Positions 42,532 to 59,707 of a stretch of 64,000 nt of DNA are shown piece after piece; within the stretch, counting starts at the first letter, position 1; every line of letters starts with the position of its first letter. The position numbers and the translations under genes are program-made. Source of the DNA: an uncultured Alphaproteobacteria bacterium (GTDB lineage Bacteria > Pseudomonadota > Alphaproteobacteria > Geminicoccales > Geminicoccaceae); NCBI GenBank assembly GCA_963720725.1, contig CAVRGN010000006.1, positions 432-64,431 of the forward strand, given 5' to 3'. The notes beneath the pieces were generated by a model, which saw only the letters and a program-made list of their open reading frames with translations, was not told the DNA's origin and did no database searches.

Positions 42532-42575
42532 GCTGGTCCCTCGATCGAAGCCGCCATGGCGATGGCGCGGATTAT

Positions 42576-44593: not shown

Positions 44594-45976
44594 ATGAGCG
44601 AATGGGTGCCAAGCTTGGGCAACGGCACGAAACCGCGCTACATAGCGATTGCAGAAGCGATCGAGGTCGACCTGGTTCAAGGGCGGCTTGCTCCTGCCCA
44701 GCGACTGCCCGCACAGCGGCAACTGGCCCGATTGCTCGGTCTGGATTTCACGACGGTGGCGCGGGGCTATGGCGAGGCTCAGCGACGCGGTCTGATCGAG
44801 TCGCGCGTCGGGGAAGGCACCTTCGTTACGGCTGCGCCGACGGCTGGCGGCAGACCGGCCGGACGCGTGGAGGCCGCCGACTTCTCGATGAACATGCCGC
44901 CCGAGTTCGACGACGTGGCGCTCTGGACGAGGCTCAACGCGAGTTTCGAGACGATCACCCACGATCTTGCCCGTGTGCTGCGATACCAACGCTTTGGCGG
45001 AACCGAGGCCGACAAGCAGGCGGCGGTCGGCTGGCTTGGCCGCCGCGGCGTAGTGGCGGGACCGGACAGGTTGTTCGTGGTTCCGGGTGCTCATTCGGCA
45101 CTGCTGGCTGCAATGATGATCCTGTCGGAGAAAGGGCGCGGGATTGTCCTGACGGAGACGCTCACCTACCCCGGGGTGAAGGCGATTGCCGAACAGCTTG
45201 GGCTCCAGCTGCTTGGGGTCCCGGTCGACCAGCATGGATTGTCCCCCACTGCGCTCGCAGAGGCTTGCAAGCACCACCTGCCCAAAGCACTTTATCTGAA
45301 CCCGACGCTGTCCAACCCGACCACGCGGACGATGCCGATCCAGCGCCGGCACGAGATTGCCGCGATTGCCCGGGAGCACGGCGTCGCGATCATCGAAGAT
45401 GATCCGTACAGCCCTCTTCCAGATGATGCTCCGCCGGCTTTCGCGACGGTCGCACCTGAAATCACCTGGCATGTCGCGACGCTGTCCAAATGCCTTGGCG
45501 CGGGGCTGCGCGTCGCCTACGTCGTGGTTCCCGACGTGCGTTCAGGCTGGAAATTCGCGTCCGCGGTGCGGTCCGCGAACGTGATGGTCTCGCCCGTCAC
45601 GGCGACGCTGGCGACACGGTGGATCATGGACGGCACGGCGGACGCGGTGTTGAGGGCGATCCGAGCGGAGACCCGTGAGCGGCAGGCTCTCGTCGCATCG
45701 ATCCTGCCGACCGAACTGGTGGCGACGGACCCGGCTGGATTTCATGCCTGGCTCTCTCTGCCTCCCCGCTGGAGCCGCTCCGCGTTCGTTGGCCACATGG
45801 CTTCCTGCGGGCTTGGCGTCGTCCCGAGCGACGTGTTCGGGACACAGGAGCCTGCCCCGGAGGCGGTTCGCATCTGTCTCGGTGGACCAGCGCCGCGCCC
45901 GGTCGTACGGACCGCGCTGGAGTTTGCTGCGCACGCTCTGTCCGAATCGCCGGCCGGGGCTTCCAGCTTCCTGTGA
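44594..45976 (+). CDS. MocR/GabR family regulator (GntR HTH + PLP aminotransferase-like domain)
   Basis: RLPAQRQLA, TVARGY, GEGTFV, PTLSNPT, EDDPY, TLSKCLGAGLRVAY. Confidence 0.93.
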   Translation: MSEWVPSLGNGTKPRYIAIAEAIEVDLVQGRLAPAQRLPAQRQLARLLGLDFTTVARGYGEAQRRGLIESRVGEGTFVTAAPTAGGRPAGRVEAADFSMNMPPEFDDVALWTRLNASFETITHDLARVLRYQRFGGTEADKQAAVGWLGRRGVVAGPDRLFVVPGAHSALLAAMMILSEKGRGIVLTETLTYPGVKAIAEQLGLQLLGVPVDQHGLSPTALAEACKHHLPKALYLNPTLSNPTTRTMPIQRRHEIAAIAREHGVAIIEDDPYSPLPDDAPPAFATVAPEITWHVATLSKCLGAGLRVAYVVVPDVRSGWKFASAVRSANVMVSPVTATLATRWIMDGTADAVLRAIRAETRERQALVASILPTELVATDPAGFHAWLSLPPRWSRSAFVGHMASCGLGVVPSDVFGTQEPAPEAVRICLGGPAPRPVVRTALEFAAHALSESPAGASSFL

Positions 45977-46151: not shown

Positions 46152-48245
46152 TCAGTTCACGGGTCGCAGCAGACCGCCGAGCAGGTTGCGGGCGAACAGA
46201 TCGCCGGTGTTGGGATCGCACCAGGCTTTCTTGACGCCTGCGGCGCCGACCGCGATCAGCTTCAGCTTGCGGTCGCGCAACCGCGTCTTCAGGGGCAAGG
46301 TCTCGAAGTGACCGTCGGTGATCTTGAGCTCCGGATGGTCGAACGGCGCCCGGTGGCAGGCGACGCGCGGATCGGTCAGTGCTTTGAGGAACTCGACCAG
46401 GTTGGTGATCTCGCTCTCGCTGAGATCGAGCTGCTCGATGTCCGGGTCGAGATTGCTGCCGCCCATGCCGGACTTGACCGGCCGGCCCTCGCCATTGTCA
46501 CCGGTGCCGGTGGTGTCGTCGCCGTTGGGGCCGCGCCGGTCGCCGCCGCGATTGTAGAACTCGACCACCTGGCGCAGCGTCGCCTGGCCCCCATTGTGGA
46601 AGTAGGGCGCGGTCAAGGCCACGTTGCGCAAGGTCGGAACCTTGAATGCGCCGTCCACGGCCACTCGCTGATGTTGGCTGAAGCTCGAGCGGTCGAAGCT
46701 GTCGCCGTTGGTGGTGCCGCGCTTGAACTGCCGAGTGAAGGAGAGCGGGATGCCGTACGGGTCCTCCCCACCGAGACCGATGTCTTCGAAGGTCGGCCGC
46801 ACGCCGATATTGTAGAAGCCGCCGTCATAATTGGCCTGGGCGCCGTCCCCCATGACCATCAGCTCGATCAGCTCGTCCTGCTGGCGCGGCGGCACCGCGG
46901 CGCCGCTGAACACCGGGCCGGTGTGACAGTTGACGCACTTGCCCTTGACGTTGAAGACCGCCAGGCCCGCGATCTGCTGGGCGGTCATGGCACGGCGTTT
47001 TCCGCGCATGTAGGCGTCGAACGGCGTCTGATCGGAGATCAGCGTCCGTTCATAGGCGTCGATGGCCAGACCCCAGAACAGCGAGAAATTGTTCTCGATC
47101 TGGCGGAAGCCGCCGCTCGGCGCCGGCACGATCTGGCCGCCGCTGATGTTGAACTGGCCGGTGCCGTCCCAGAGATCGCGAGCGAACGCTTGCTGGATCA
47201 TCTGCTCGTAGGTCGCGCTCAGCCCCCTCAGCGGGCCGACCAGCCCCATCGGGCCGAAGACGCTGTCCTGCGGGTGGACCTTCTGTGTCGCCAGCGCTTG
47301 CCGTCCCAGCAGCTTCTTGCCGATATAGGCGAAGGACCGGTTGGCGCAGGCCATCTCGAACGAGCTGTTGGGTGGGCCGACCGCCTGCGAGGCGAGGCTC
47401 ATGTTCTCCAGCAGCAGCGTGTCGAGCACGAAACTGCCGCCCTGGTTGCGCACGATTCGCGCGTTCGGGTTGTTCTCGACGTCGCGGCGGCCGAACACGT
47501 CCTTGCCGTTGAAGACGTTGTTGGCGCGGCCGTCCCAGAAATTGCGATAGAAGTAGGCCGCGTTGATCACGGTCGGCGTGTTGCGCGGCTCGACCTTGCG
47601 CGTTCGGCGCGGGCCGTTGACGTCGAGCTTGAAGATCGTCGTCGCGTCGAGAATCGGGCTGCACAGGTCGCGCTTGCCGTTGCGGGTCGAGAGCACCTCG
47701 TCGACGCCGATCAGGAGACCGTCGAACACGCCCTGCGACGAGGCGACATCGTTGCTGTCGTAGAGGATGTCCGCATTGCGGTCGGTGATGTCGGCCAGCT
47801 GGTGGAAGGGGAAATCACGCCCCTCCAGCTTGGTGTTCGGCCGCGCGAGGTTGCCCGAGGACTCCAGGAACCCGCCGCGGGTGAGCCCGGCTGCCCCGGC
47901 CGGTGCGATGCCGCCGAACGCGATGTCGGCCAGAGGCTCGACCTTGAGGCCGGGCGAAAGCTGGTTCGTGATTCTTGGATCGGCGCCGGCATGGAAATGG
48001 CAGCTGGCGCAGGCCTGGCCGTCGCTGCCGACGGCGCCGTCCCAGAACAGCGCCTTGCCCAGCGCCACCAGCATCTTCCGATCGGTCACCAGCGCATCAT
48101 ACTGACTGGCGGGCGGAGCCGGCGGTGCCACGTCCAGCGCTCCGACCGTGGGTGGCGCCTCGGGCACCTGCGCCCAGCCGGCTGATGGCGCCGCCGCGAG
48201 CATCAACGCCGTGCTCACGAACAGCACGCCCGTCGTCCGAATCAT
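46152..48245 (-). CDS. Large secreted diheme cytochrome c peroxidase/MauG-superfamily protein
   Basis: Signal peptide after ATG 48245; CASCH and CVNCH; RNTPTVINA, FWDGRA, FKVPTLRNV.LTAPYFHNG, VVEFYNRGG. Confidence 0.9.
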   Translation of the reverse strand: MIRTTGVLFVSTALMLAAAPSAGWAQVPEAPPTVGALDVAPPAPPASQYDALVTDRKMLVALGKALFWDGAVGSDGQACASCHFHAGADPRITNQLSPGLKVEPLADIAFGGIAPAGAAGLTRGGFLESSGNLARPNTKLEGRDFPFHQLADITDRNADILYDSNDVASSQGVFDGLLIGVDEVLSTRNGKRDLCSPILDATTIFKLDVNGPRRTRKVEPRNTPTVINAAYFYRNFWDGRANNVFNGKDVFGRRDVENNPNARIVRNQGGSFVLDTLLLENMSLASQAVGPPNSSFEMACANRSFAYIGKKLLGRQALATQKVHPQDSVFGPMGLVGPLRGLSATYEQMIQQAFARDLWDGTGQFNISGGQIVPAPSGGFRQIENNFSLFWGLAIDAYERTLISDQTPFDAYMRGKRRAMTAQQIAGLAVFNVKGKCVNCHTGPVFSGAAVPPRQQDELIELMVMGDGAQANYDGGFYNIGVRPTFEDIGLGGEDPYGIPLSFTRQFKRGTTNGDSFDRSSFSQHQRVAVDGAFKVPTLRNVALTAPYFHNGGQATLRQVVEFYNRGGDRRGPNGDDTTGTGDNGEGRPVKSGMGGSNLDPDIEQLDLSESEITNLVEFLKALTDPRVACHRAPFDHPELKITDGHFETLPLKTRLRDRKLKLIAVGAAGVKKAWCDPNTGDLFARNLLGGLLRPVN

Positions 48246-48744
48246 GGAGTTCTCCCGCCCTAGCTTCATGCGAGTGAGGTGGCTCTTGCGGCTCTTCACT
48301 CGGCCATTCTGGCGCCATATCGTCGCCGCGCGATTTGTTGCTGAACCGCCATTTGCCAGCAATATGCTTTTTGTTGTCCACTCTGCAGTGCGCGTTGAAT
48401 AGAGTAGAAAGCCGTACAATAGGGCAACTCAGTTATGCTTTTGCGCTTCTCTAAGTTCATGTTATTCTATCATCGGTACGCATAGGCGCAGAAGCTCGTT
48501 GCGCTCGGGATTTGAGGAGTGTTTGGCTGTTTCTCCAGACGATACGGCGTTGCCGGCTTCTTGTATCGCTGCCGCAGAGACTCCCAACTGTTGGATCTTG
48601 GTCACGAAGCGGCCGCGATGGGCTGCGACGTGCGCCGCCCCCTCCACGACCCGCACATGGCGGCCGAGATCGTAGCATGGGTCTCGTCGGCATCAACGCT
48701 CGCCAGAAGGCGCAGCGGTCGCGCCGCGGCGCGCCTTACGTCCA

Positions 48745-49518
48745 CTACCCGCAGCGCCCGTGCACCTTGCCGTTGAGTGTCTGGGTCTTGAAGATCAGTG
48801 GCGCGCCGATCCCCGCGGCGAGTTTGCAGTAAGTCGCCATCCGGTCGGGCCGGTTCGTATAGGCGACGAGTTGGACCGGCTTGCCGGCCTTGAGGAACGG
48901 CTGGACCTTGGCGCAGTCACCGAGAGTGACGCAATTGTCGGCGACGAGAAAGTCGAAGTCCCGCGCGAGGCCGGCAGCCTGGGCGAGATCGTCGACCAGG
49001 CCGACGGACAGGCCGCGCGCATGGGCGGCCATGGCGAGCCTGCGATTGAATGTCAGTTGGTCCTCGGCCGAGATGGTGAACCCCGTATTTCTGGCGTAGC
49101 CGTCGACGTCGCCCAGCAACACGCCGACGAACCCTCGATCTCGACACAGATCCAGCCGGAGCTCGAGTACCGCCGTGACGGACGGGTCACGGACATCCAG
49201 CCAACGCTCGCCGCGCCAAGCCGACGGGCTGCGTCCCAGCGCAGTCACCGCAACGTTCGCGGCGTCGGGGCGCCAGTTCTGCCACCGTCCAGCGGAGAGG
49301 TAACACAGGGCGGCGACATTGCGCGCGCGCAGTCCTGCCAAGCGCTCGCGCGAGGTGCCGAACGGCTCCAGCACGATTGCGTCGGCAATGCGGCCGAGGT
49401 CGTAGGGTGCGGTGAGCTGGAGGTCGAAGAGCAGCCCCGGCTGGGGCCGCCAGTCTGCGCTCGCAGCGCTCAACGGCGCCAGGGCCAAGAACGCGATCGC
49501 GAGGAGCCGAGCGTACAT
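48745..49518 (-). CDS. GH114 (endo-alpha-1,4-galactosaminidase-like) protein with atypical active site
   Basis: Signal peptide; CYLSAG.W..WRPD, W.GERWLDVR, RLDLCRDRGF, EDQLTFNR.LA..AH.RGLSVGL. Confidence 0.75.
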   Translation of the reverse strand: MYARLLAIAFLALAPLSAASADWRPQPGLLFDLQLTAPYDLGRIADAIVLEPFGTSRERLAGLRARNVAALCYLSAGRWQNWRPDAANVAVTALGRSPSAWRGERWLDVRDPSVTAVLELRLDLCRDRGFVGVLLGDVDGYARNTGFTISAEDQLTFNRRLAMAAHARGLSVGLVDDLAQAAGLARDFDFLVADNCVTLGDCAKVQPFLKAGKPVQLVAYTNRPDRMATYCKLAAGIGAPLIFKTQTLNGKVHGRCG

Positions 49519-49528
49519 GTTCGATCGC

Positions 49529-50086
49529 TCACGAGTGGACGACGATGCCAATGAAGGATACGGCGCTGCCGGGCACCGATCCAAGACCGACCCGAATATG
49601 GTAGAATCCGCCGTCGACCAAGCCGCCGGCGCAGACCACACGTGCCGTCGTGCCCACCAGTGTCCCGCCCGCTGCACTGCTCCAGCCGCACACCGGGAAT
49701 TCTGCGAAGCCGTCGGGGTCAGCGGCGAGCTCGGTGCGGACCAGTTCGACCGTGACCAGCGCCGCGCCGGAGCCGTCGCCGTCCAGGTACGAGATATCGA
49801 GCGTGATCGCGTCGTCGCGGTCGACGGAATGGTCGAGTTCGTCGGATGGCAACGCGCAGATCAGGCTCGCGCTCGCGCCATCGCGGACCGTGAACGCGCC
49901 ACCGGAACGCGCCGACGCTACATCACTGGCCGAGGCGATCTCGGTGCAGGCAGCCGCTGGAATCGTCAGAGGGTGCCCAGCAACGCCATTGTCGCGGCCC
50001 TCTTTGGCATGGACGAGAAGGGGAGTAGCGCAAGCGAGCGAAGCCAAGAGGATGATGTACTGCGAGGGATGGCGAGTATTGGACAT
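49529..50086 (-). CDS. Secreted hypothetical protein
   Basis: Signal-like IILLASLACATPLLVHA; about 185 aa with paired Cys. Confidence 0.65.
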   Translation of the reverse strand: MSNTRHPSQYIILLASLACATPLLVHAKEGRDNGVAGHPLTIPAAACTEIASASDVASARSGGAFTVRDGASASLICALPSDELDHSVDRDDAITLDISYLDGDGSGAALVTVELVRTELAADPDGFAEFPVCGWSSAAGGTLVGTTARVVCAGGLVDGGFYHIRVGLGSVPGSAVSFIGIVVHS

Positions 50087-50267
50087 GGACGTTCCTCCGT
50101 GGCGGCCTCGCGGCCGGAGAGTGGCACTGCGACAAGCAGGGTGGAGCGGCCCAGGCCACGTCCACCCTGCCGGCCCGCGCCTGGGTCCGAGGCGGATCTC
50201 CGCGCCGGGGGCGAAGCGGGTGGCTTGTCCCGACAAGCCCGCGGTGCGGCTTTCGAACGGTGGATGG

Positions 50268-51305
50268 TTACGGAAGAGGAACCGGCTCCTGGTAGTACCA
50301 ATTGGCCAGGCCGACCGCGGCGCCACCCGACGGGTCTGCGGCAAAGTAGAGCCTGGGACCGTTGGACACTGTCGCCGGGGCCGCCGCGAAACCGGACACG
50401 CCGGCAAAGAAGCCTGGCACGAGGGCGAATCCGCCGTTCACCGGGTCGGGATTGTAGATGTTCACCGTGTCCAATGATTGGAGATCGCTGATGAACAGGT
50501 TGGTCCCGTCCGAACCGACGGCCAGCGGCAGGAAGCCCAGACCGACGTCGCTAGCAAGGCAGGAATTATTCGGGGTGCAAAGGCCCTCGCCGTCGATGTT
50601 GGCGGGAACGCGGTTCGACGGGTCCTGGATCATCGTGACGCCCGTGGCCTCGGCGATGTAGAGATCGCTGCCTACGAAGGCCAGGCTCTGCGCGCCGCCG
50701 CCGTCGGAGGTCGAGGCGACCAGTTGGACACCAGACGGATTGTTCGTGAGGGCGTTCCTGATCCGATAGATATCGCCCCCCGCCCGCTGAGTGATGATGT
50801 AGAGATCACCGCCCGGGTCCAAGGCCGCCGCGATCGGACGACAACCGGCGAGATTGCCGCTCTTGCAGCGACGGTTGGCGACGTTGCCGTTGAGCGTCCT
50901 GCGACTGCCGGTGAACAGCTTGGTGTTGGTCCGATACTGCACCCGAATGATCCCGACCGACTTCGAGGAATCGTCGGGCAGGAACGCCGTCAGTGTGGCA
51001 GGGTCCATGGCCGGCTGGCCGCCGGCGAGGATGCAGCCCGTCGGCGCCAGCGGGCTTCCGATGAATGCAGCGCTGGAGTTCGTCGCGGTGGTGGGCTGCA
51101 CCGGACAGAAGCCGAAGGTGTGATCGGCGACCCAGAGCCGGCCGCCGGTGGGCAGCGCGCCATCCGGGACCCAGAGGCCGCCGGTCGGTGCCGTGGCGCC
51201 CGAAAGATAGACATTTGCCGCATCGGCCGGATCGGCCAAGGCGAGACTGGCTACCAAGCCAAGCGCTGCGGTCGCCAGAGCAAGATTTCGAGACATCATT
51301 TTCAC
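50268..51305 (-). CDS. Secreted Cys-rich protein, probable beta-propeller
   Basis: Signal peptide ending ADA; repeated LDPGGDLYI, FVGSDLYIA, SDGTNLFIS, PRLYFA strands; six Cys. Confidence 0.7.
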   Translation of the reverse strand: MKMMSRNLALATAALGLVASLALADPADAANVYLSGATAPTGGLWVPDGALPTGGRLWVADHTFGFCPVQPTTATNSSAAFIGSPLAPTGCILAGGQPAMDPATLTAFLPDDSSKSVGIIRVQYRTNTKLFTGSRRTLNGNVANRRCKSGNLAGCRPIAAALDPGGDLYIITQRAGGDIYRIRNALTNNPSGVQLVASTSDGGGAQSLAFVGSDLYIAEATGVTMIQDPSNRVPANIDGEGLCTPNNSCLASDVGLGFLPLAVGSDGTNLFISDLQSLDTVNIYNPDPVNGGFALVPGFFAGVSGFAAAPATVSNGPRLYFAADPSGGAAVGLANWYYQEPVPLP

Positions 51306-51381
51306 TCCGCTAGGACAGCCGGCACCTGCCGACTCTCACGGTCTGACGAATTTGTTCGGTGTATTTGGCGTGGTGCGTTAC

Positions 51382-53201
51382 TTACTTCGGTGGTCGGATA
51401 CTCCACGTGGTCATCATCGCATTGTCCTCGTGCACCACGTTGTGGCAGTGCATCACGTAGCGGCCGTGATCCGCCTTGGTCTCACGGACCTGGCCGCCGG
51501 ACGGGCTGTAGCCATCCATCGGGAAATCGCGGAAGCGCAGGACCAGCTCGTGCACGCTCTGGCGCAGCCGGTAGATGTCGGCGCGGTAGCGCTTGCCCGC
51601 CGGCACGGCTACTCCGTTGGTGCGGATGATCTGGCCTTCCTCGAAGTGGATGTGCAGCGGGTGGTCCCAGCCGCCCTGGGAGCTGTCCAGCACCCAGAGT
51701 TCGGCCGTGTCGCGCGTCACCTCGTTGGGAGAGATGTTGAGCGCGGCATTGTCATGGTCGATGTCCGGGTCCCAGAACTTGTCGTTGATCGCCCACATCC
51801 CGTTCTTGCGCCCGAACTTGAACACCTTGCGCGGCAGGGTGCTGGGGTCGGGCAAGGGCGGCAGCGGCCGGAACGATTTGGGCAGCTTGAGCTTCGGGTA
51901 GGTGGCCTGCTTGCGACGGACGATGAACTTGACCAGCTGGTTCGCCGGGTCGTCCGGATTCAGTTTCTTGCCGACCTCCTCGCCGCGCCCGTCGTCGCGC
52001 ATCTTGAGCGTGTTGCTCATGATGATCTCGGTGCCGTCGGGATAGGCGCTGAAGTCGACCCAGATGTCGTTGCGCTCGGCGACCCAGAAGTCGGTGCTGG
52101 TCTGGTTCAGTCTCGGCTTCGGCAGGAAGTTGCCGCTGAGCGCCATGATCGCGAACGGCACGTCCTGGCCGGCCTTGCGGAACACGCAGCGATAGAACCG
52201 TGACGGCCCGCCGTTCAGCAGACGGAACCGGTACGCGCGCGGCTCGACCTCGAAGTAGGGCTTGTAGGCGCCGTTGACCGTCAGATAGGGGCCGATGAAG
52301 CCATCGGTGGCGAACTGGTTGAAGGTCATCTCGCCGGTGTCGCCGACGATCTCCTTGTCCTGGAACAGCAGCGGCACGTCGTAGTCGCCGCTTGGCAGCT
52401 TCCAGCCGGTCTGCTCGTTACCAGTATCCTGGTTGTCGAACATGCGGACCATCATGAACAAGCCCTTGTAGAGGTTGGGCGCTGTGAAGTCCGGCATGTG
52501 ATCATGGATGAACAGCGTGGTCAGTGTCTCGCGCAGATCGCCGCCGCCGTCGGGCGCCCACCAGCTACCGCCAGGCGCCAGCGGGTCGGCGTAGGTCGCC
52601 GGCGTGTGCGTGAAGCCGGCACGCGCCATGCAGTAGTGCTGGATCCGCGACTCGCCAGGATTGAGCCAGTTCCATGGGCCGCCGTCGCTTTCGGTGGCGG
52701 TGTGCATGTTGTGCAGATGAGAGGTGGTGCGCGGGTCGCCATAGCCCCGATGGTTGGGGTCGAGTTCGTTCTTCAGCTTGAAGCAGAACGCATCGCCCCA
52801 CTTGGCGTCGAGGACCGGCCCGCCGAAGACGCCGTTGAAGCTCCACACCCTGCTCGGCGGCAACTCGCTGTGGAACTGGTGATCATGCTCCCGCTGCTTG
52901 AGTTCGTAGCAGCGGCTGTTGGGCGCATCGTACCGTTCGGAATATTGGTGGTCATCGTGGCCGTAGGTGAAGTCCGCCCCGCCTTTCAGGGTCGACGGCA
53001 CCGGCATCGGGTCCTTCCATGGCGTCAGCGGCCGGACCGGGACCTCCTGGCGATGGCCTCGCGCAGCGAGGCCCCCTTGGCATAGGCGGCCCCTCCGGCG
53101 ATCAGTCCCAGCTTCGACAGTTCGCGACGGTTGAGTTTGGCGGCGTCCAACTCCGCCCGAAGCTGCAGCGCGCGCTTCGTCGCTCGATTCAATCCGAACA
53201 T
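51382..53201 (-). CDS. Tat-exported multicopper oxidase (CotA/bilirubin oxidase-like), frameshift near 53050
   Basis: HLH, IHDH, HPLHIH, HCHNVVHEDNAM all present. ATG 53201 encodes MFGLNR...NRRELSKLGLIAGG...EAIA in another frame that joins QEVPVRP with one extra C. Confidence 0.88.
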
Positions 53202-53264
53202 GCTCTGCCCTCACTCACGATTTTTGTTGTCTCGAGGCCCTGTGGCGGCGCGGCCGCCACTGCC

Positions 53265-53855
53265 TCAGCCCATATCGGCCAGCATCGTCACCGCCTTGGC
53301 GATCCAGGCCGGGCGCTGGACACCGGGTGCGCAGCCCCAACGGTCGAGTCGGTCATTGCCGTAGCGCACCATCCCGGTGTGGCTGTCGCGCTCGCCGGCG
53401 AAGTCCGGTTCGCTGTCCTGAAAGCCGGTCGCGCGCCGCAGCTCCGCGATCCGGTCCGGCCGGCCGGTGACGAAGCTCCAGCCGGGCCTTGCGTCCCACA
53501 GCTTCGCATAGTCGCGCAGGATCGGCGGCGTCTCGAGTTCCGGCTGCAGCGTGACCGAGACCATGAAGATGTCCCGTCCCATCCGGTCACGGAGGATGTC
53601 CTGCACCTCGCGCAGGTTCTCGGTGACCAGCGGGCAGGTATCGCCACACGCGGTGTAGAAGAAGTTCAACAGCACCGCCCGGTCGCGGATCAGATCGTCG
53701 TAGAAGGCGAGCTCGCGGCCGGTGTGGTCCACCACAGGCGTGTTGGGTATGGTCGTGCCGGCGGATGCCGGGCGTGCTTCGCCTGTAAGTAGTGAACCTG
53801 CAATGCCACCTGCGAGGGCGACAGCGCCCACGCGCAGAAAATCAACTCTACGCAT
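53265..53855 (-). CDS. SCO1/SenC family copper chaperone
   Basis: FYTACGDTCP (CxxxC), conserved His in DSHTG, RR-type signal. Confidence 0.92.
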   Translation of the reverse strand: MRRVDFLRVGAVALAGGIAGSLLTGEARPASAGTTIPNTPVVDHTGRELAFYDDLIRDRAVLLNFFYTACGDTCPLVTENLREVQDILRDRMGRDIFMVSVTLQPELETPPILRDYAKLWDARPGWSFVTGRPDRIAELRRATGFQDSEPDFAGERDSHTGMVRYGNDRLDRWGCAPGVQRPAWIAKAVTMLADMG

Positions 53856-53980
53856 TGTTTCCGCCTCGTCTTGGCCTGGATAACTACCAGGTTGGTTTCG
53901 ACGCAGGTCTTCTGTATCTATGGGAGCAATGATTGCTCTCGTAGCCCGTCGGAAGACTACTGCATCTACAGAGAGCGGCT

Positions 53981-53997
53981 ATGCACAAGCCGTGCCA
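53981..53997 (-). promoter_or_regulatory. sigma54 (-24/-12) promoter for the SCO-MCO operon
   Basis: Minus strand TGGCACGGCTTGTGCAT (GG-N10-GC), about 125 nt upstream of the SCO start. Confidence 0.7.
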
Positions 53998-54230
53998 ACT
54001 GTCCGATCGACCGAACCGATCCATTTTGCGCCGTGCGATGCAGCGGTTTGATCGCCGAGCCGGGGTTTTTCACCCGCTTCTTTGGAATAGCTCGCGGTCG
54101 GGCTTGTAAGTATCGCGTCTATTCGCATTATGCGCGAGACAACTGGAGCCAGAATAGAACTTGAACGATATTTCTTGTGAAGGTCCGTATCTATCTTCGG
54201 TTTGGACCGGTGTCTGGCGGTTCGCTCGCC

Positions 54231-55610
54231 TCACTCTGCGCGCAATTGGAACTTCTCGACCCGATAGCGCATGGCGTCCCGAGACATCCCGAGCAGCCGG
54301 CCCGCATGGGTCATGTTCCACGCCGTGCGCTCGAGCGCCTGAAGGGTGAGGTCGCGCTCGAGCTGCTCGAGGTCGATGCCCCCTGCGGGCAGCACGAAGC
54401 CGGCCCCGCCCCCCTGGGGGGGTGACGGGATCAGCATTGGGAACGCGCCCGCGTCAAGATCGCCGCCGCCGCTGGCGAAGACCACGACCTGTTCCAGCAT
54501 GTTACGGAGTTCGCGGACGTTGCCGGGCCAGTCATGGGCCAGCAGCGCGGCACACGCATCCTCGGTCAATCTGGATACCGCATGGCCGTAGGATCGAGCA
54601 TGAAGCTCCAGGAAATGGCCGGCGAGCATGAGCACGTCGTCGCCACGTTCGCGCAGGGGCGGTGAGTGGAGCCCGATGATCGACAACCGGAAGAACAGAT
54701 CGGCGCGGAACCGGCCTGCGTCGACCAGTTCGCGCAGCGGACGGTTGGTCGCCGCCACGACCCGTACATCGATCGGACGCTCCCGTACCGCGCCCAGGCG
54801 GCGCACGGTGCGGCTCTCCAGAACCCGCAGCAATTTGGCCTGCAGCCCCAGGTCGAGTTCGCCGACCTCGTCGAGGAACAGCGTTCCACCGCTCGCGGCC
54901 TCGATCAAGCCGATCCGCTTTTCCCTGGCATCCGTGAACGCGCCGCGCTCGTGCCCGAAGAGCTCGCCCTCGACGATCGACGGCGGCAGCGCCGCGCAGT
55001 TCAGTTCGATGAATGGGCCGGCTGCGCGCGGACCGTCGAAATGGAGCGCCCGGGCGATCAGCTCCTTGCCCGATCCGGTTTCCCCGCCGATCAGCACCGA
55101 GGGTGGCGGTCCCTGCATCGCCGCCTCGGCGTCGAGGAGCTGTCGGATTCGCCTCCGCAACGCCTGAATGGCGGCACTCTCTCCGAGAATGGCGCCGAGA
55201 TCTCCCGAGCTTCGGCGCCGATAATAGGCCAGGGCACCCCCGGCCCGGTCGTCCTGCAAGGCGCGGTCGATGACCCGGCGCAGCTCGCTCAGCACGACCG
55301 GTTTGGTCAGATATTCGTAGGCGCCGGCCCTCATGGCCTCCACGGCGGTCTGAACGCTGCCGTGCGCGGTGAGCATGATCGCGTGGATCGAAGGGTCACG
55401 TTGGCGCAGCTCCCGCAGCAGCGTCAGCCCGTCCATGCCCGGCAGCCGCAGGTCGAGCACCACCACGTCGGGGTGGAAATTCTCGAGTGCCAGCAGGGCC
55501 GCCTCACCGTCGGCGCAGACTCGCGCGTCGAAGCCCTCGACGACCAGGTATTCCTTGAGGTTGCGGGCGAGGGACGCCTCGTCTTCGACGATCAGTGCGC
55601 CGTAGGCCAT
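54231..55610 (-). CDS. NtrC-family sigma54-dependent response regulator
   Basis: Receiver domain, GETGSGKE, ELFGHERGAFTDA, LFLDEV, HDWPGNVREL, Fis-type HTH. Confidence 0.96.
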   Translation of the reverse strand: MAYGALIVEDEASLARNLKEYLVVEGFDARVCADGEAALLALENFHPDVVVLDLRLPGMDGLTLLRELRQRDPSIHAIMLTAHGSVQTAVEAMRAGAYEYLTKPVVLSELRRVIDRALQDDRAGGALAYYRRRSSGDLGAILGESAAIQALRRRIRQLLDAEAAMQGPPPSVLIGGETGSGKELIARALHFDGPRAAGPFIELNCAALPPSIVEGELFGHERGAFTDAREKRIGLIEAASGGTLFLDEVGELDLGLQAKLLRVLESRTVRRLGAVRERPIDVRVVAATNRPLRELVDAGRFRADLFFRLSIIGLHSPPLRERGDDVLMLAGHFLELHARSYGHAVSRLTEDACAALLAHDWPGNVRELRNMLEQVVVFASGGGDLDAGAFPMLIPSPPQGGGAGFVLPAGGIDLEQLERDLTLQALERTAWNMTHAGRLLGMSRDAMRYRVEKFQLRAE

Positions 55611-55996
55611 GCCTTGCCAGCTGCCTCCCGCGCCTGCGCGACAACACGTCCGAGCTCGCTGAGCGCCAATGGCTTGGGCAGGAAATCGTAAGCACCCGCG
55701 GCGAGCACGGCCGCCCCGGTGTCTGCGCTGCCATGCGCGGTTACCACGATCACCTTAACGGCCGGCTCCAATACCTGCAATCGTGCGAGGACGGCGAGAC
55801 CGTCGATGCCCGGCAAGCGCATGTCCAACACCACTACCGGGTGGGCGCGCGCCGCGAACAGCTCCAATCCCAACTCGCCGTCCGGGCACACATCGGCTTC
55901 CAGGCCATCGACCTCGAGATATTCCTTGATGTTGCGGGCCAGAGAAAGCTCGTCGTCGATCACCAGGACATCGTAGGGCATGATCGCGTCCGTCAT
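55592..55996 (-). CDS. Stand-alone receiver domain response regulator
   Basis: IDDE, VVLDMRLPG, TAHG, KP. Confidence 0.9.
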   Translation of the reverse strand: MTDAIMPYDVLVIDDELSLARNIKEYLEVDGLEADVCPDGELGLELFAARAHPVVVLDMRLPGIDGLAVLARLQVLEPAVKVIVVTAHGSADTGAAVLAAGAYDFLPKPLALSELGRVVAQAREAAGKAWPTAH

Positions 55997-57447
55997 GGCG
56001 CAATAGGTAGGGTGAGCGACACGGTGGTACCGTGCCCGAGCTTGCTTTCGATGGCAATCCGCCCGGCATGGCGGGCCAGAATCCGTCGGGTCAAGGCCAA
56101 GCCGAGGCCGAGGCCGGACTGTTTGGACGTGACGAACGGTTCGAACGCGCGCCGCAGCTGGCTCTCGTCCATGCCGCGCCCATTGTCGGCGACGCTCAGC
56201 GTCACGCTTCCACCTCCCGCCGACCCGGCGATCCGGATAACGCCGCCTTCCGGCATGGCCTGCATGGCGTTGGTGGCGATGCCGTTCAGGACCTGCTCGA
56301 GCAGGGCGCCGCCGATGGCGACGGGCGGCAGCGCCGACGGAAGCTGATTGTTCCAGGCGATCCCCTGCCGCTCGAGCTGATCCGCAAGATTGGCCCGGAC
56401 GGCCTCGACCACGGCCCCGACCTGCTCGCAGCGGTCTGCCGAGTTCGGCTCGGCAGCGGTCAGGTATTGTCGCACCCAGTGCTCGAGCCGGTCCGCCTGC
56501 AGCACGATGTCCTCGAGCAATGGGACGGTCCGCTCGGCCGACCGCAAGCGCAGCGCGAGCTCGGCCGAAGAGCGGATGACCGCCAGCGGATTGCGCAAGC
56601 CGTGCGCTACCGCCGCCGCCATCTCGCCGGCCGTGGCCAATCGTTCGCCATCGGCTATGGCCTGAGCCTGGCGCCGGATCATGCGATCGGCATAGGCGAC
56701 CAGCGAGCCGAGGGCGGCGATGATCAGCAGGGCACCCGCCGCGGCGCCGAGATAGACCAGCCGCTGCCCGGTACTGATCCGATCGAAGAGATCCTTGGGC
56801 GTGCGGTAGACCTCGGCGACCGCGACGACGGGCTGGCGCAAGTCGCCGTCGCGATACATCGGCATGTAGTTCTCGACGAACTGCGTGCCGGGCGAGGCGA
56901 GTCCGACATGCTCGTCCTTGTCGTCGTCGGTGATCCGCGCGACTTCCGCCTGCGGTTCCCCTTCAACGGCCTCCGCCAGCTCGTCATTGCCCGTGAACTG
57001 GCGTCCGACGATCGACGGTTCGGTCGACCAGTAGACCGTCCCGTCGAGCAGATAGATGTTGGCCCGGAGGATATCGGGCATCTGGCCGACCTGAGCGAAG
57101 AACTTCGCCAATGCAGGTGGGACCGGCCGCTCGGGGGATGCCGTGAACGCCGTGTCGGCACCCTCGAAAGCGAACAGATGGTTGATGAATTCCGTGGTCA
57201 GTCGGCCATCGAGGTTCAGCAAGCTCTCGGTCACGTAGCGCGACAGCAGCGCCGCCGACGCCAGGCTCACGGCCGTCACCGAGAGCAGGCTCAGCAGGAG
57301 GAACCAAATCAGCAGGCGAAATCGCCCCGCCGTCGATCTGCTCCGGCTCCGCTCGGCGGCATGGTGTGTCGCTGTGGTGTGTTCCTCCTTGAGCGGCGCC
57401 TCCTTGCGAGCGATGCCCTCGAGGGCTGGCTGGGATCCGTTGGTCAT
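55993..57447 (-). CDS. Membrane sensor histidine kinase
   Basis: Two TM helices around a periplasmic domain; AHGLRNPL, NAMQAM, DNGRG, F box PFVTSK, GLGLGL. Confidence 0.94.
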   Translation of the reverse strand: MTNGSQPALEGIARKEAPLKEEHTTATHHAAERSRSRSTAGRFRLLIWFLLLSLLSVTAVSLASAALLSRYVTESLLNLDGRLTTEFINHLFAFEGADTAFTASPERPVPPALAKFFAQVGQMPDILRANIYLLDGTVYWSTEPSIVGRQFTGNDELAEAVEGEPQAEVARITDDDKDEHVGLASPGTQFVENYMPMYRDGDLRQPVVAVAEVYRTPKDLFDRISTGQRLVYLGAAAGALLIIAALGSLVAYADRMIRRQAQAIADGERLATAGEMAAAVAHGLRNPLAVIRSSAELALRLRSAERTVPLLEDIVLQADRLEHWVRQYLTAAEPNSADRCEQVGAVVEAVRANLADQLERQGIAWNNQLPSALPPVAIGGALLEQVLNGIATNAMQAMPEGGVIRIAGSAGGGSVTLSVADNGRGMDESQLRRAFEPFVTSKQSGLGLGLALTRRILARHAGRIAIESKLGHGTTVSLTLPIAP

Positions 57448-57613
57448 TGTTATTGTCCGGGTCCGACGTGGAAGAGCAACCGGCGCGTGGCACGTGCCCG
57501 CGTCTGGGGGCGGATAGATGAAAGCCGCAGATGGCCGGAGATCGGCCCGCAAGAGAGTGCGTCACCGGTGGCGCCAACATGCTTGCGGCCGTCCGGGCCG
57601 GCTTGGCCACACC

Positions 57614-57630
57614 ATGCACGTCACGTGCCA
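57614..57630 (-). promoter_or_regulatory. sigma54 (-24/-12) promoter for the kinase-regulator operon
   Basis: Minus strand TGGCACGTGACGTGCAT, same TGGCACG-N4-GTGCAT form as 53981-53997. Confidence 0.6.
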
Positions 57631-57764: not shown

Positions 57765-58103
57765 TCAGAGGGGGACGGCGGGAGAGCGCCACTGACCTTC
57801 CGTGCTACGGCAGGCTGTCGCCTGGGATACCGATCCGCTCCCGTCCACATGGCGTGTCGTGACCTGGTAGTCCCTGCAGAAGAGCGCGGCGTTCTTGAAG
57901 GTGCGGAGCGGCGTGATCGTGCCAGACAGGCCGCCTGCCGCATCGTTCCAGGCGACGAGTTCCCCGCTCGGGGTGGTGGTGAGCGTGTATTGAACCACCA
58001 CGTCCGGGACGGCGGTCCCGGACGTGGTCACGTCGCCGCCTCGGGTGGCGCAGGCGGTCAGCATGACGATCCAACCGACGGCCACGATCGCCCTGGGGCT
58101 CAT
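57765..58103 (-). CDS. Lipoprotein with 17 kDa surface-antigen-like (RT0821/Lpp0805-type) domain
   Basis: Lipobox LTAC; SG..VAW, GTITPLRTF, CRDY, ACR..GQW. Confidence 0.78.
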   Translation of the reverse strand: MSPRAIVAVGWIVMLTACATRGGDVTTSGTAVPDVVVQYTLTTTPSGELVAWNDAAGGLSGTITPLRTFKNAALFCRDYQVTTRHVDGSGSVSQATACRSTEGQWRSPAVPL

Positions 58104-59003
58104 TGCCAGCCACCTCGGATCAACGCGGCTTCCTGTTCCGGCGACAGGTCCCCGCTCACCTGATGCGGCGCGCGGGCAGTGGCCGGGTTGGCGCCGCCGT
58201 GAGGTTTGGTGACGGTGACGCCATGCTCCACCTCGACCTCGAGCCGACCTTGACGATCGACGGTCACCTGCCGTGCCGGCTGGCCCGCGACCTCCACGGC
58301 TCGAACACCCGTGACGGCACCTGGCTGCCGGACCGCATCCTCGCCGTGGGGCTTGACCGTCACGGTGCGTACGCCGTGCTCGATTTCCACCTCGACCTCG
58401 AGCACGCGGCCGAGGTCGTCCACCAGAACGCGGTCGCCGCTCAAGACACCATCGATGTCGCGATCGCGGAGCTCGACTTCTGCGCGACCTTGACGGCGAC
58501 CGGAATCGTCGGTGCCGCTGCGACCGGTGCCGGACCTTTCGCCATCGTCGCTGCGATCGCCCGATCCGGAGCTGCCACCATCATCGCTGCCGCTGCGGCC
58601 CGATCCGGAGCTGCCGCCATCATCGCTGCCGCTGCGGCCCGAGCCGGAGCTGCCGCCGTCATCGCTGCCACCGCCCGAACCGGACCCGCCACCATCGTCG
58701 CTGCCGCCGCCGGAGCCGGAACTGCCGCCGTCGTCACTGCCGCCGCCAGAGTCGAGAGCCGCCGCCATCGTCGCTGCCGCCGCCGGAGTGAGAGCCGCCG
58801 CCGTCACCTCCGCGACCCGAGCCGCCGCCGTCGCCGCCACGACCCGACCCGCCGCCCTTGCCGCTGTCCGCCAGCGCGGTGGACCAAGCCATGGCAAGGC
58901 CATTCTTGTCGGTTGGCACGAACTTGACGGGCACTGTGACGGCACTGGCAGCCAGCAATGCCATGATTCCAACCTGTGCCATCAGGGCGCTGCGCATCTT
59001 CAT
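58100..59003 (-). CDS. Secreted Gly/Ser/Asp-repeat protein, frameshift near 58753
   Basis: ATG 59003 with GGAGAG upstream and a signal ending ALA; repeat unit TCTCACTCC becomes TCTCGACTCT (+1), switching to the frame of track ORF 58100-58972. Confidence 0.75.
58500..58860 (-). repeat. Coding tandem repeat (GGSDDG, 36-39 nt period)
   Basis: Seven SDDG units plus one TDDS, preceded by two GGSGRGGDG units. Confidence 0.9.
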
Positions 59004-59158
59004 GATAACTCTCCGCTCGGCCTGTCGCGGCAGCGTGAGCGCCGCCATGCCGAGACAACCCTTGGCGGCCGAATTTCCTTCCGCGCCCGTCGTAGAAGAA
59101 TTTTTAAAAGATGCCGGACGAAAGTCTGTCGAGAGGTGTTTTCGAGCAGAGCGATTAC

Positions 59159-59707
59159 ATGAGCGCTGCGGCAGACCATGATATGGCCAGAACGGCAGAT
59201 GACGAGGTTCGCGAGCAGATGGTGGCGTTGATGCCGCGGCTGAGGCGCTTCGCGCTGCTGCTCACGGCGTCCCGCGCCGACGCGGACGACCTCGTCCAGG
59301 CGGCCCTGGAGCGCGCCATCCAGCGGCTCGATCTGTGGCAGCGGGGCACGGCGCTCGACCGCTGGCTGTTCAAGGTCGCGCACAATCTGCATCGCAACCA
59401 GCGTCGCGACTTTGCGACCCGTCTGCGGCTGGTCCAGCGGCACGGGGAGACCATGGACTTCGCGGAGGACGGCGCAAGACGGGCGGAAGCTGCGACGGAG
59501 TTGGCCGAGGTGCGCCAGCGCATGCTCGCGCTGCCAGAGGAACAACGGTCCGTGCTGACGCTGATCGCCATCGAGGGCTTCTCCTACCAGGAGGCAGCTG
59601 ATTTGCTGGAACTGCCGATCGGCACCGTCACGAGCCGTCTAGGTCGCGCCCGCGATGCTCTGCGGGCCGCCCTGGCGGGCCACGACAAGCAGTTGGAGTC
59701 GGCATGA
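59159..59707 (+). CDS. ECF RNA polymerase sigma factor
   Basis: PRLRRFA, DADDLVQ, WLFKVAHN, FSYQEAADLLELPIGTVTSRLGRAR; start 59159 or 59111. Confidence 0.95.
   Translation: MSAAADHDMARTADDEVREQMVALMPRLRRFALLLTASRADADDLVQAALERAIQRLDLWQRGTALDRWLFKVAHNLHRNQRRDFATRLRLVQRHGETMDFAEDGARRAEAATELAEVRQRMLALPEEQRSVLTLIAIEGFSYQEAADLLELPIGTVTSRLGRARDALRAALAGHDKQLESA

Follow-up and report, generated by a model that had tools for sequence, protein, structure and literature searches.

A conserved, sigma-54-linked multicopper oxidase–SCO gene cluster in an uncultured Geminicoccaceae bacterium: a possible Mn(II) oxidase system

We analyzed a 64,000-nucleotide stretch of an uncultured alphaproteobacterial genome (hereafter the window) and found that a minus-strand cluster of nine genes within it (46152-57447) is a real, conserved gene set. 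Our preferred interpretation, held with a little less than even confidence, is that the cluster encodes an inducible extracytoplasmic oxidase system, most probably a Mn(II) metal oxidase. The first-pass annotation had listed nine minus-strand genes with specific domains and read them as a sigma-54-controlled oxidation module. All nine genes are present, with their domain calls backed by Pfam, NCBIfam and an AlphaFold model. That reading is partly supported. Synteny, a sigma-54 promoter, a multicopper oxidase (MCO) distinct from CueO and the parallel with Mn oxidases bear it out; the module is no fixed unit, and its propeller is not of the MtoX type.

Conservation of the cluster and its lineage-specific components

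A search of other genomes and metagenomic loci found the cluster genes to be syntenic in relatives. The kinase, receiver, activator and SCO–MCO genes are kept in three further genomes of the same genus and in three metagenomic relatives. Locus L092 (genome G010) reads HK-REC-EBP-SCO-MCO-propeller-orphan-GH114, and its di-haem gene lies at a distance of 3.5 kb. The other two genus members show HK-REC-EBP-SCO-MCO-orphan (L121, G006) and SCO-MCO-propeller-orphan-GH114-HK-HK (L120, G013), while the order is EBP-SCO-MCO in L090 and REC-dihaem-HK-EBP-SCO-MCO-propeller in L001. The module is no fixed nine-gene unit: its invariant core is the MCO plus SCO pair, to which the di-haem enzyme is tied by phyletic pattern.

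Three further secreted proteins are shared by only some of the relatives. The first, of 345 aa (50268..51305, minus strand), is modeled as a six-bladed beta-propeller (AF2 pLDDT 78.8, pTM 0.82). It matched no Pfam or NCBIfam family, and Foldseek places the model nearest to NHL/sGDH-type propellers at a TM of ~0.5. Within the clade its orthologues are limited to a part, namely L092, L120, L001 and L002; the domain itself has 954 representatives, often in tandem inside large proteins. The second is a 185-aa orphan (49529..50086, minus strand) without a Pfam or NCBIfam family, which is found at 45-61% identity in all three other module-carrying members of the genus and is restricted to that genus. 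The third is a GH114-family glycoside hydrolase (48745..49518, minus strand; Pfam E 4.7e-49), present at this position only in G010 (L092) and G013 (L120) and absent at every other locus examined; its conservation is limited to the genus. The earlier statement that all six effectors carry export signals stands for the SCO protein, propeller, orphan, GH114 and di-haem proteins, as judged by eye, but needs correcting for the MCO, whose Tat signal is out of frame with its body in this assembly.

Regulatory genes and sigma-54-type promoters

The sensor histidine kinase (55993..57447, minus strand; HisKA E 4.8e-10, HATPase_c E 1.3e-23) has two transmembrane segments flanking a ~160-aa periplasmic domain that matched no known sensor family. 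It is accompanied by a stand-alone, REC-only receiver (55592..55996, minus strand; Response_reg E 3.3e-25) and by an NtrC-type sigma-54 enhancer-binding response regulator (54231..55610, minus strand; Sigma54_activat E 1.7e-60) with a REC + AAA+ + HTH_8 architecture. Orthologues are 54-70% identical for the kinase (L092, L121, L120, L090 and L001), 50-72% for the receiver and 66-78% for the activator. The sigma-54 contact loop of the activator reads GAFTDA, as it does in every orthologue; this departure from GAFTGA was counted against the reading of the cluster as a sigma-54-dependent oxidase system.

These three genes adjoin a predicted sigma-54-type promoter (TGGCACGGCTTGTGC; 53983..53997, minus strand), located ~130 nt upstream of the SCO ATG and preceding the SCO-MCO-propeller-orphan-GH114 series. 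A scan of the whole window on both strands for TGGCAC-N5-TTGC, allowing at most one mismatch, returned only eight sites, two of them correctly oriented in the two relevant intergenic regions. The second of these (TGGCACGTGACGTGC; 57616..57630, minus strand), ~170 nt upstream of the kinase ATG, has one mismatch to that consensus and the same form, TGGCACG-N4-GTGCAT, as the SCO-upstream site; it is a putative promoter. TGGCACG-N4-RTGC precedes SCO in all four subclade loci that cover the region (the window, L001, L090 and L092) against one of 77 other loci, with an expectation of 0.011 per region. This conservation, together with the rpoN gene found in the window's genome, supports the predicted sigma-54 control. 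The di-haem gene lies outside the sigma-54 operon, which was also counted against this reading; it has an AT-rich upstream region of its own (~470 bp), and its position shifts between relatives.

The MCO–SCO pair and its probable substrate

The SCO1/SenC-family copper chaperone (53265..53855, minus strand; SCO1-SenC E 3.9e-14) displays C70GDTC74 and His159 and starts with a Tat-like signal, MRRVDFL... (RRVDFL). The MCO gene as called (51382-53214, minus strand) has all four copper motifs, which lie in a three-domain, bilirubin-oxidase/CotA-like body (51382..53040, minus strand) as HLHNMH, HDH, W-D-HPLHIH and HCHNVVHEDNAM. In Pfam its Cu-oxidase_3 score stays under the gathering threshold, and we found no characterized orthologue. 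It belongs to a large unnamed family, carried by at least 567 species genomes and marked by the motifs ESDGGPW and HED[HN]AMM. An SCO gene adjoins 86 of the 96 family genes examined, across at least eight phyla, and the other neighbours vary by lineage: a large di-haem enzyme, MopA-like haem peroxidases or beta-propellers.

The best reading of the system is that it is analogous to the McoA-SCO/MnxS1S2R system of Pseudomonas while lying outside that subfamily. In Pseudomonas, SCO1/SenC genes are found linked to both mcoA and mnxG, sigma-54/MnxR activates both, and a beta-propeller and a cytochrome c protein are further products of the mnxG operon (PMC13689576, PMC11409713). The Mn loci of P. 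putida GB-1 share with the window an exported MCO beside a dedicated SCO1/SenC gene, one or more sensor kinases with an NtrC-type activator (MnxS1/MnxS2/MnxR in GB-1), and an oxidase promoter that bears sigma-54 sites; the regulators adjoin the MCO–SCO pair in some strains. There are also differences: McoA and MnxG have 1,131 and 1,944 aa against ~600 aa for the window MCO, and the window has the order SCO then MCO, a stand-alone receiver and, as haem partner, a CCP/MauG-type di-haem enzyme of ~700 aa. Membership of the window MCO in the long-form McoA subfamily was rejected. The Pseudomonas frames that are probably orthologous to McoA (L118, L119) are long, precede an SCO gene and make up a form of their own; their match to the window MCO, split into two pieces, reaches 160 bits, no better than that of fungal bilirubin oxidase to the orthologue P0003 (135 bits).

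A second link to Mn oxidation comes from the family at large. In 13 betaproteobacterial loci, genes for giant MopA-like proteins of the animal-haem-peroxidase/RTX kind flank MCO–SCO, and T1SS ABC genes are present at roughly half of these loci (the Pfam check covered two giant proteins and one ABC gene), which strengthens the Mn-oxidase parallel drawn in the first-pass annotation. These distant family members lie in apparent operons with the MopA-like and T1SS genes, recalling the MopA-type Mn oxidases and the mofA-mofB-mofC/ompB systems; in MofA/OmpB clusters an MCO is accompanied by a cytochrome c and, in some cases, by an SCO (PMC13689576, PMC5566968). They differ from the window in that its haem partner is of the CCP/MauG superfamily; MopA-like genes flank only distant members of the family, with none in the window and, elsewhere in the genome, only a weak An_peroxidase-like frame. 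Because of the analogy with the Pseudomonas mcoA-SCO and mnxG operons under sigma-54 MnxS1S2R and the family link to MopA-like genes, rather than through orthology, Mn(II)/Mn(III) is the likeliest substrate, an assignment that taken on its own remains doubtful.

Nothing in the cluster sequence pinpoints a substrate, and the strongest competitor is an MCO acting on iodide (as in IoxA), Fe(II) or Cu(I), or phenolic or pigment compounds in the manner of a laccase or bilirubin oxidase, with neighbours that are only loosely related helpers; we consider this unlikely, if the least so among the alternatives. Among solved structures, bilirubin oxidase and CotA laccase come nearest to P0003, and the best NCBIfam match of the window MCO is the o-aminophenol oxidase PhsA. 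With bilirubin oxidase and CotA (PDB 2xll, 6iqz, 1gsk) it shares the overall fold, the four copper motifs and the Met axial ligand, and with bilirubin oxidase also a Trp two residues ahead of the first type-1 His ligand. However, the E-values are only 2e-38 to 1e-28 with P0003 as query, and the window family stands apart in its long Tat leader, which is conserved, and in being obligately linked to SCO. Phenol-oxidase operons are not known to depend on an SCO protein, on a di-haem enzyme or on regulation by sigma-54, which counts against a phenolic substrate. For iodide, the ioxABCDEF cluster of Iodidimonas and Roseovarius likewise encodes an MCO described as phylogenetically distinct from CotA, CueO, CumA and CopA, together with three SCO1/SenC genes and one or more secreted partners whose function is not established (PMC9415286). 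For IoxA, relatives have been described from Gammaproteobacteria and Nitrospirae (PMC9415286), where the window family also occurs, and SCO-MCO triplets in tandem are found at L005 and L058. Against this, the window contains a single SCO gene and lacks a recognizable IoxC (71 kDa); iox, compared here by its published description, further includes IoxE and has no reported sigma-54 system or haem protein, and its spectra show 320/590 nm peaks only (PMC9415286). Cu(I) detoxification, the generic role that would have emptied the earlier proposal, is unlikely because there is no Met-rich region (2.6% Met), no copper-type regulator and no copper-resistance neighbour (cop/pco/cus), and the MCO is not CueO-type (97 bits against a cut-off of 525).

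The di-haem enzyme

The ~700-aa secreted di-haem enzyme of the CCP/MauG superfamily (46152..48245, minus strand; CCP_MauG E 6.9e-20) has CxxCH motifs at residues 79 and 437. It shares with di-haem cytochrome c peroxidases, MauG, MbnH and BthA the two CxxCH motifs and the signatures PRNxPT...FWDGRA and FKxPxLRN...PYFHNG, but these have 310-480 aa and are without its three large insertions (~80-140 aa each); its AF2 model was unusable (pLDDT 47.6). It forms a separate, well-conserved orthologous group, with members 43-68% identical beside MCO–SCO in Alpha-, Beta- and Deltaproteobacteria and Nitrospira. The gene adjoins MCO–SCO for 16 of the 96 MCO genes, at 15 loci, six of them in Nitrospira MAGs. 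Of 41 related genomes, the five that have the MCO are precisely those that have the di-haem enzyme, although the two genes are on separate contigs in G006 and G013; in a 250-genome sample of the phylum the sole genome with full-length di-haem copies is the sole one with the MCO family. A paralogue without an MCO beside it lies elsewhere in the window's genome.

This shared phyletic pattern, which holds even where the genes are unlinked, can also be read as cofactor maturation: a MauG-type enzyme would modify a protein partner, either the MCO, e.g., by a Trp-His cross-link at the type-1 copper, or the propeller or orphan, with SCO supplying copper. W-x-H-P-x-H-x-H is invariant in the MCO family, and W510/H512 occupy what we take to be the cross-link site of bilirubin oxidase, the closest solved relative of P0003. 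That cross-link is reported to form in bilirubin oxidase without a helper, which counts against the proposal. The di-haem protein does score against the MauG and MbnH models, though far under their cut-offs (89 vs 444 and 118 vs 363 bits), and its best PDB matches are true peroxidases. Roughly 80 of the 96 MCO genes lack a di-haem neighbour, and therefore the MCO does not generally depend on the enzyme, at least in cis. By analogy, the proposal draws on MauG/MADH and on the mtoX-SCO1/senC-mauG cluster, the sole literature match to unite a MauG-like di-haem protein with an SCO copper chaperone and a beta-propeller that is secreted (PMC5739008). Of this methanethiol oxidase parallel the combination stands and the propeller does not: the window propeller lacks the SBP56 (MtoX) signature and matches nothing in Pfam, and it is absent from G006 and G028, both of which keep the di-haem enzyme. 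The window di-haem protein is also twice the size of MauG, and the conserved centre of its module is an MCO. We regard maturation as improbable.

The interrupted MCO frame

In this assembly the MCO reading frame is interrupted, an observation counted against a working oxidase. A Tat-signal fragment, MFGLNRATKRALQLRAELDAAKLNRRELSKLGLIAGGAAYAKGASL (53025..53201, minus strand), opens with an ATG at 53201 and runs for 58 codons to a stop in a frame different from that of the body, and it aligns to residues 1-51 of intact MCO orthologues. An apparent 1-nt deletion (CCAGGAGG|TC; 53042..53050, minus strand), placed by alignment to orthologues, separates the signal from the mature enzyme. Taken at face value, the frameshift would leave the enzyme unexported and the module decaying and non-functional in this strain; the MCO is also broken in G010 of the same genus, and the module is patchy, being carried by four of ten genus members. 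Yet the gaps, which fall in one and the same short G-run within a CCAGG motif, differ in size: compared with intact L090, L002 and L001, the window is short by 1 nt and L092, the G010 locus, by 2 nt. Both affected assemblies have few contigs (13 and 20), whereas the MCO is unbroken in the many-contig G006 and G013; the G010 gene has further breaks, and the remaining cluster genes of the window are all intact. Such a pattern appears typical of long-read homopolymer or methylation-motif errors. The gap is probably a long-read assembly error, and genuine decay is improbable.

A model for the system

Under the favoured reading of an inducible extracytoplasmic oxidase, a periplasmic signal would activate the kinase, and the phosphorylated activator would open the sigma-54 promoter. 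The MCO would be exported by Tat, receive its copper from the dedicated SCO protein in the periplasm and oxidize a one-electron substrate while reducing O2 to water. The peroxidase-like di-haem enzyme may work with it, either by consuming H2O2 or by itself oxidizing that substrate as a second oxidant, the latter role being modeled on the MopA-type haem peroxidases beside relatives of the window MCO. The propeller, orphan and GH114 protein may represent lineage-specific accessories, e.g., for handling the substrate or product in the envelope or exopolysaccharide matrix.

Gene content of the cluster and the interrupted oxidase frame

The ORF listing and the Pfam and NCBIfam scans bore out the nine same-direction genes of the minus strand that the first-pass annotation had described from the sequence alone. 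At the 5' end of the run lie the genes for a histidine kinase (55993–57447; HisKA and HATPase_c domains, with a periplasmic domain of ~160 aa between two TM segments), a receiver-only protein (55592–55996; Response_reg) and an NtrC-type activator (54231–55610), in which the REC, AAA+ Sigma54_activat (E = 1.7e-60) and HTH_8 domains are all present. Next come a SCO1/SenC gene (53265–53855; PF02630, E = 3.9e-14), whose product has the thioredoxin-like domain with the CxxxC motif (C70GDTC74) and the distal histidine (His159) of SCO1/SenC copper chaperones, and the long ORF of a multicopper oxidase (MCO; 51382–53214). The run ends with a 345-aa protein (50268–51305) and a 185-aa orphan (49529–50086), neither assigned to a family, a GH114 hydrolase (48745–49518; E = 4.7e-49) and a di-haem protein of ~700 aa (46152–48245; CCP_MauG, PF03150, E = 6.9e-20).

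Searches of Pfam, NCBIfam and the PDB revealed no relatives of the 345-aa protein by sequence. Its AlphaFold model, of fair confidence (pLDDT 78.8, pTM 0.82), folds as a generic six-bladed β-propeller (NHL/soluble-dehydrogenase type; TM ~0.5 in Foldseek), so that the earlier designation of this protein as a propeller is right, if generic, on the predicted structure. A 336-aa protein at locus L006 and a 258-aa protein at locus L004, considered as its homologues, are not homologous.

The four copper motifs of three-domain MCOs of the CotA/bilirubin-oxidase type, HxH, HxH, HxxHxH and HCHxxxHxxxxM, are all present in the MCO, as HLHNMH (166), HDH (237), HPLHIH (518) and HCHNVVHEDNAM (589). Among the 11 family members compared, the copper-ligand His and Cys residues of motifs 2–4 are invariant in all, and both His residues of motif 1 are kept in at least 90%. 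The original gene description requires one correction: the Tat signal of the MCO is out of frame with the enzyme body. The long ORF starts with non-signal sequence, and a classic Tat leader (…LNRRELSKLGLIAGGAAYAKGASL) is found in another frame, which opens at the ATG at 53201 and then hits a stop. The orthologues are single proteins of 606–623 aa, whose first ~50 residues match the out-of-frame leader of the window, and a whole-genome search likewise recovered the MCO match split in two. When the DNA sequences are aligned, the gap falls at CCAGGAGG|TC (~53042–53050), where the window is short of 1 nt and the same-genus locus L092 of 2 nt, with the metagenomic relatives L090, L002 and L001 intact. 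Within the genus, the gene is intact in the many-contig assemblies G006 and G013 and broken in both few-contig ones, namely the window's own G000 (13 contigs) and G010 (20 contigs), the latter with additional breaks beyond the shared site. We infer a long-read error at a homopolymer or methylation motif; a real frameshift mutation, and with it decay of the cluster, appears improbable.

The Tat leaders of the window's MCO clade (53025–53201 in the window; proteins P0003, P0022, P0026 and P0054–57) are unusually long, at ~45–55 aa, with a conserved charged, helix-like stretch (R.LELR.EL.AAKL) preceding the twin arginines. They recall leaders bound by dedicated Tat proofreading chaperones.

Conserved gene order and modularity

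The genes had been interpreted as a sigma-54-controlled extracytoplasmic oxidation module, a proposal that is partly supported: they are syntenic elsewhere, because six relatives' loci keep parts of the gene order, and the MCO is not of the copper-detoxification type, but they do not constitute one fixed unit. Three of these loci are from the window's genus (HK, kinase; REC, receiver; EBP, activator). L092 (G010) displays the order HK-REC-EBP-SCO-MCO-propeller-orphan-GH114, followed by a 17-kDa lipoprotein, an ECF sigma/anti-sigma pair and, on the opposite strand, the di-haem gene. L121 (G006) has HK-REC-EBP-SCO-MCO-orphan and L120 (G013) SCO-MCO-propeller-orphan-GH114-HK-HK, each with the di-haem gene on a different contig, in G013 beside an ECF sigma gene. 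The metagenomic relatives carry EBP-SCO-MCO-244 aa (L090; MCO 79%), SCO-MCO-propeller-IS-dihaem-RTX protein (L002; MCO 76%) and, in a Geminicoccaceae MAG, REC-dihaem-HK-EBP-SCO-MCO-propeller-295 aa (L001; MCO 62%). The cluster is a modular unit, with the GH114 and orphan genes confined to the genus and the propeller present in part of the clade only.

Just upstream of the kinase gene, the window codes for a 17-kDa-antigen-type lipoprotein and an ECF sigma/anti-sigma pair (57765–58103, minus strand; 59111–59707 and 59704–60327, plus strand), the anti-sigma featuring the same 17kDa_Anti_2-like domain as the lipoprotein. At L092 this trio lies between the GH114 and di-haem genes, and at L116 of G013 the ECF sigma gene is divergent from the di-haem gene; an ECF sigma system may control the di-haem gene. 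A 290-aa ORF (58100–58972, minus strand), made up mostly of SGSGGGSDDGG-type repeats and with no Pfam match, may code for a low-complexity protein that is secreted or may be spurious. The di-haem gene is flanked by three genes (41527–44342, minus strand; 44594–45976, plus strand), coding for an α/β hydrolase with a Tat-like signal, a CadC-type winged-helix/α/β-hydrolase fusion and a MocR-type GntR/aminotransferase regulator. MocR-type genes, considered as a linked partner, clustered by BLAST in the window and four Pseudomonas loci (3–4 kb from the MCO); we regard this as family abundance and probably coincidence. The first 2000 nt of the window have a GC content of 54%, compared to ~68% across the remainder.

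A large MCO family with a dedicated SCO gene

The family to which the MCO belongs, recognized by the motifs ESDGGPW[ND] and HED[HN]AMM, was found in at least 567 genomes in a scan of one genome per species, and the family libraries searched contain no entry specific to it. Its loci were analyzed with our own scripts, using the best 79 of the loci from those at least 567 genomes together with the loci fetched earlier. In this set, 86 of the 96 MCO genes have a SCO gene on their own strand no more than 700 bp away, and the MCO–SCO dependency extends across the family. The order is SCO followed by MCO in the window's alphaproteobacterial clade, with the SCO gene ending 63 nt 5' of the MCO ATG in the window itself, and MCO followed by SCO elsewhere.

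Members of the family include nitrifiers, Acidobacteriota and pseudomonads. At 13 betaproteobacterial loci (Nitrosomonas, Ramlibacter, Polaromonas, Variovorax and Noviherbaspirillum), the genes flanking the MCO–SCO pair, in many cases in what look like operons with it, code for giant proteins combining animal-haem-peroxidase and RTX domains, which is the architecture of MopA; T1SS ABC genes are present at about half of these loci (Pfam calls at L060, L044 and L065, BLAST clustering at the others). A search of the window's own genome for a MopA-like gene returned just a weak 58-bit An_peroxidase-like frame on another contig. In Acidobacteriota, eight loci have a 333-aa NHL propeller gene after the SCO gene. 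Members of the putida group of Pseudomonas (G001, G051, G053 and G058) code for up to about 10 paralogues of the ~600-aa family per genome and also for a long-form MCO (frames of 950–1,270 aa) with a SCO gene directly after it, which its length and context mark as probably McoA.

A di-haem enzyme linked to the MCO

With two CxxCH motifs (CASCH at 79 and CVNCH at 437) and a CCP_MauG domain, the di-haem protein is a member of the bCCP/MauG superfamily, with PDB profile matches to 1iqc (2.7e-31), 6e1c (7e-30) and MauG (~1e-19). It is not a MauG/MbnH equivalog, scoring 89 bits against a cut-off of 444 for TIGR03791 and 118 against 363 for TIGR04039 (NCBIfam). Its AlphaFold model (pLDDT 47.6) is not good enough to support a fold search.

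This enzyme is tied to the MCO in two ways, by adjacency and by phyletic pattern. Of the 96 MCO genes, 16 have an orthologue of it (43–68% identity, 380–1,000 bits) next to the MCO–SCO pair, in 15 loci that include six Nitrospira MAGs, Polaromonas, Noviherbaspirillum and one deltaproteobacterial MAG. In a set made up of the window's genome and those of 40 relatives, 5 genomes have the MCO (E ≤ 1e-60), precisely these 5 also have the di-haem enzyme (E ≤ 1e-30), in 2 cases on separate contigs, and the other 36 have neither; the chance of such an identical pattern is ~1 in 750,000, without phylogenetic correction. In a sample of 250 genomes spread evenly over the phylum, the sole genome with full-length di-haem copies was also the sole genome with the MCO family. 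A literature search found no description of a module of MCO, SCO and large di-haem protein, or of such a recurrent partner in this context; as a partner of the MCO–SCO pair, the di-haem enzyme is well supported.

The window's genome has a second di-haem paralogue (57% identity; G000:C3:343093–345147, L114 8064–10151) with no MCO beside it. The next gene codes for a 407-aa RTX calcium-binding protein (L114 6764–7987), an arrangement shared with L002, where a 406-aa RTX protein comes after the di-haem gene. Genes for a DUF1513 protein and an imelysin are located near this paralogue.

Sigma-54 sites and the activator

Sigma-54-type sites were found ~130 nt 5' of the SCO gene (TGGCACGGCTTGTGC) and ~170 nt 5' of the kinase gene (TGGCACGTGACGTGC), there being just eight such sites with at most one mismatch on both strands of the whole window. 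The regions upstream of the orthologous SCO genes contain TGGCACGCTTGATGC in L001, TGGCACGCAAAATGC in L090 and TGGCACGCCTTATGC in L092. Overall, 5 of 81 loci have such a site ahead of the MCO/SCO run, 4 of them from the window's subclade, with a background expectation of 0.011 per region. The window's genome possesses rpoN. The sigma-54 loop of the activator reads GAFTDA rather than the canonical GAFTGA, as it does in all four orthologues, whereas that of the Nitrospira neighbour is GAFTGA; we argue that the GAFTDA-bearing activator would be functional because the candidate sigma-54 promoters are conserved. A SCO–MCO operon with a predicted link to sigma-54 and a two-component system is conserved, its kinase, sigma-54 response regulator and promoter site being recognized from sequence.

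The di-haem gene has its own AT-rich upstream region of ~470 bp, with no convincing sigma-54 site in it (the best is a poor 2-mismatch match at 48303–48317). A scan for terminators and sigma-70 promoters gave counts no higher than those of shuffled sequence. A perfect TGGCAC-N5-TTGC match at 63036–63050 (plus strand), within the coding region of a secreted protein starting at 62674, is probably fortuitous. In L001, a CACAGCT heptamer microsatellite of ~13 copies (8680–8770) lies between the activator gene and the SCO sigma-54 promoter. In L092 (6800–7290), a stretch of ~150 bp upstream of the SCO gene occurs twice as a direct repeat, accompanied by a copy of the activator gene's 3' end; this duplication is either real or an assembly artefact.

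Comparison with known systems and possible function

Oxidation of Mn(II), other metals or halides by bacterial MCOs is environmentally important, and its genetics are understood in few models. The cluster belongs to the known type of MCO–SCO metal-oxidase operon, with a di-haem partner that the literature searched does not describe. It resembles the McoA-type Mn(II) oxidase system in the adjacency of the MCO and SCO1/SenC genes and, as far as sequence can indicate, in the kinase(s), sigma-54-dependent response regulator and putative sigma-54 site 5' of the oxidase. It differs in that the McoA-type enzyme is a long-form MCO of ~1,100 aa (1,131 aa in McoA itself; PMC13689576), compared to ~600 aa in the window; because of this length and the score of the probable Pseudomonas McoA orthologues (frames of 973–1,273 aa followed by SCO), whose alignments to the window's MCO are split and reach no more than 160 bits, orthology to McoA of P. 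putida GB-1 was rejected. SCO genes are found in the mcoA and mnxG operons, the latter also with a propeller and a cytochrome c protein, and control is by sigma-54/MnxR (PMC13689576, PMC11409713).

Under the proposed mechanism, the SCO protein would metallate the Tat-exported MCO in the periplasm, the MCO would oxidize a one-electron substrate and the haem enzyme would cooperate with it, a scheme that we rate at a little below an even chance. A dedicated CxxxC chaperone for an MCO has a precedent in CutF, with the housekeeping SenC being dispensable for the CueO-type CutO (PMC8456105). Mn(II) oxidation offers the strongest functional analogy, to which the SCO genes, propeller, cytochrome c and sigma-54/MnxR control of the mcoA/mnxG operons contribute together with the MopA-like linkage of the family, and it is a possible but tentative assignment. 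Neither rating is set higher because there is no orthology to a proven Mn oxidase.

Other substrates, iodide included, are somewhat less probable still. The iodide oxidase cluster ioxABCDEF differs in having three SCO1/SenC genes interleaved with IoxC and IoxE, the window's cluster having one, and searching plasmids by tblastn yielded no match from Iodidimonas or Roseovarius. L005, a locus with three SCO–MCO pairs, is not an iox cluster because its GC content is 65%, compared to a reported 55.6% in Iodidimonas, and the copper motifs are retained in each of its three MCOs. The 345-aa propeller was likewise rejected as an SBP56-family MtoX of an mtoX-SCO1-mauG cluster, having no Pfam or NCBIfam match. 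A copper-resistance oxidase of the CueO/PcoA type was also discarded: the MCO has 2.6% Met and no Met-rich stretch, it scores 97 bits on the CueO model versus a cut-off of 525, and the cluster's neighbours (~41.5–64 kb of the window) include no cop, pco or cus genes.

More speculatively, and on balance doubtfully, the di-haem enzyme and the SCO-dependent MCO family might constitute an undescribed obligate two-enzyme unit of Alpha-, Beta- and Deltaproteobacteria and Nitrospira, placed in the window's lineage under a dedicated substrate-sensing sigma-54 two-component switch. Either the di-haem enzyme would modify the MCO by introducing a cross-link or a protein-derived cofactor, the invariant Trp located two residues ahead of the type-1 His being one candidate site, or the two enzymes would work jointly as a haem/copper metal-oxidizing machine, one dealing with peroxide that the other produces or uses. 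Maturation by a MauG-like enzyme as the cluster's function is distinctly unlikely.

This work defines a very large MCO family whose hallmark is a gene for a dedicated SCO copper chaperone beside the MCO, and suggests a concrete reason for Mn oxidizers keeping both copper and haem oxidases. In the window's lineage, the adjacent kinase/sigma-54 switch offers an experimental handle, as identifying the inducer of the promoter would reveal the substrate.
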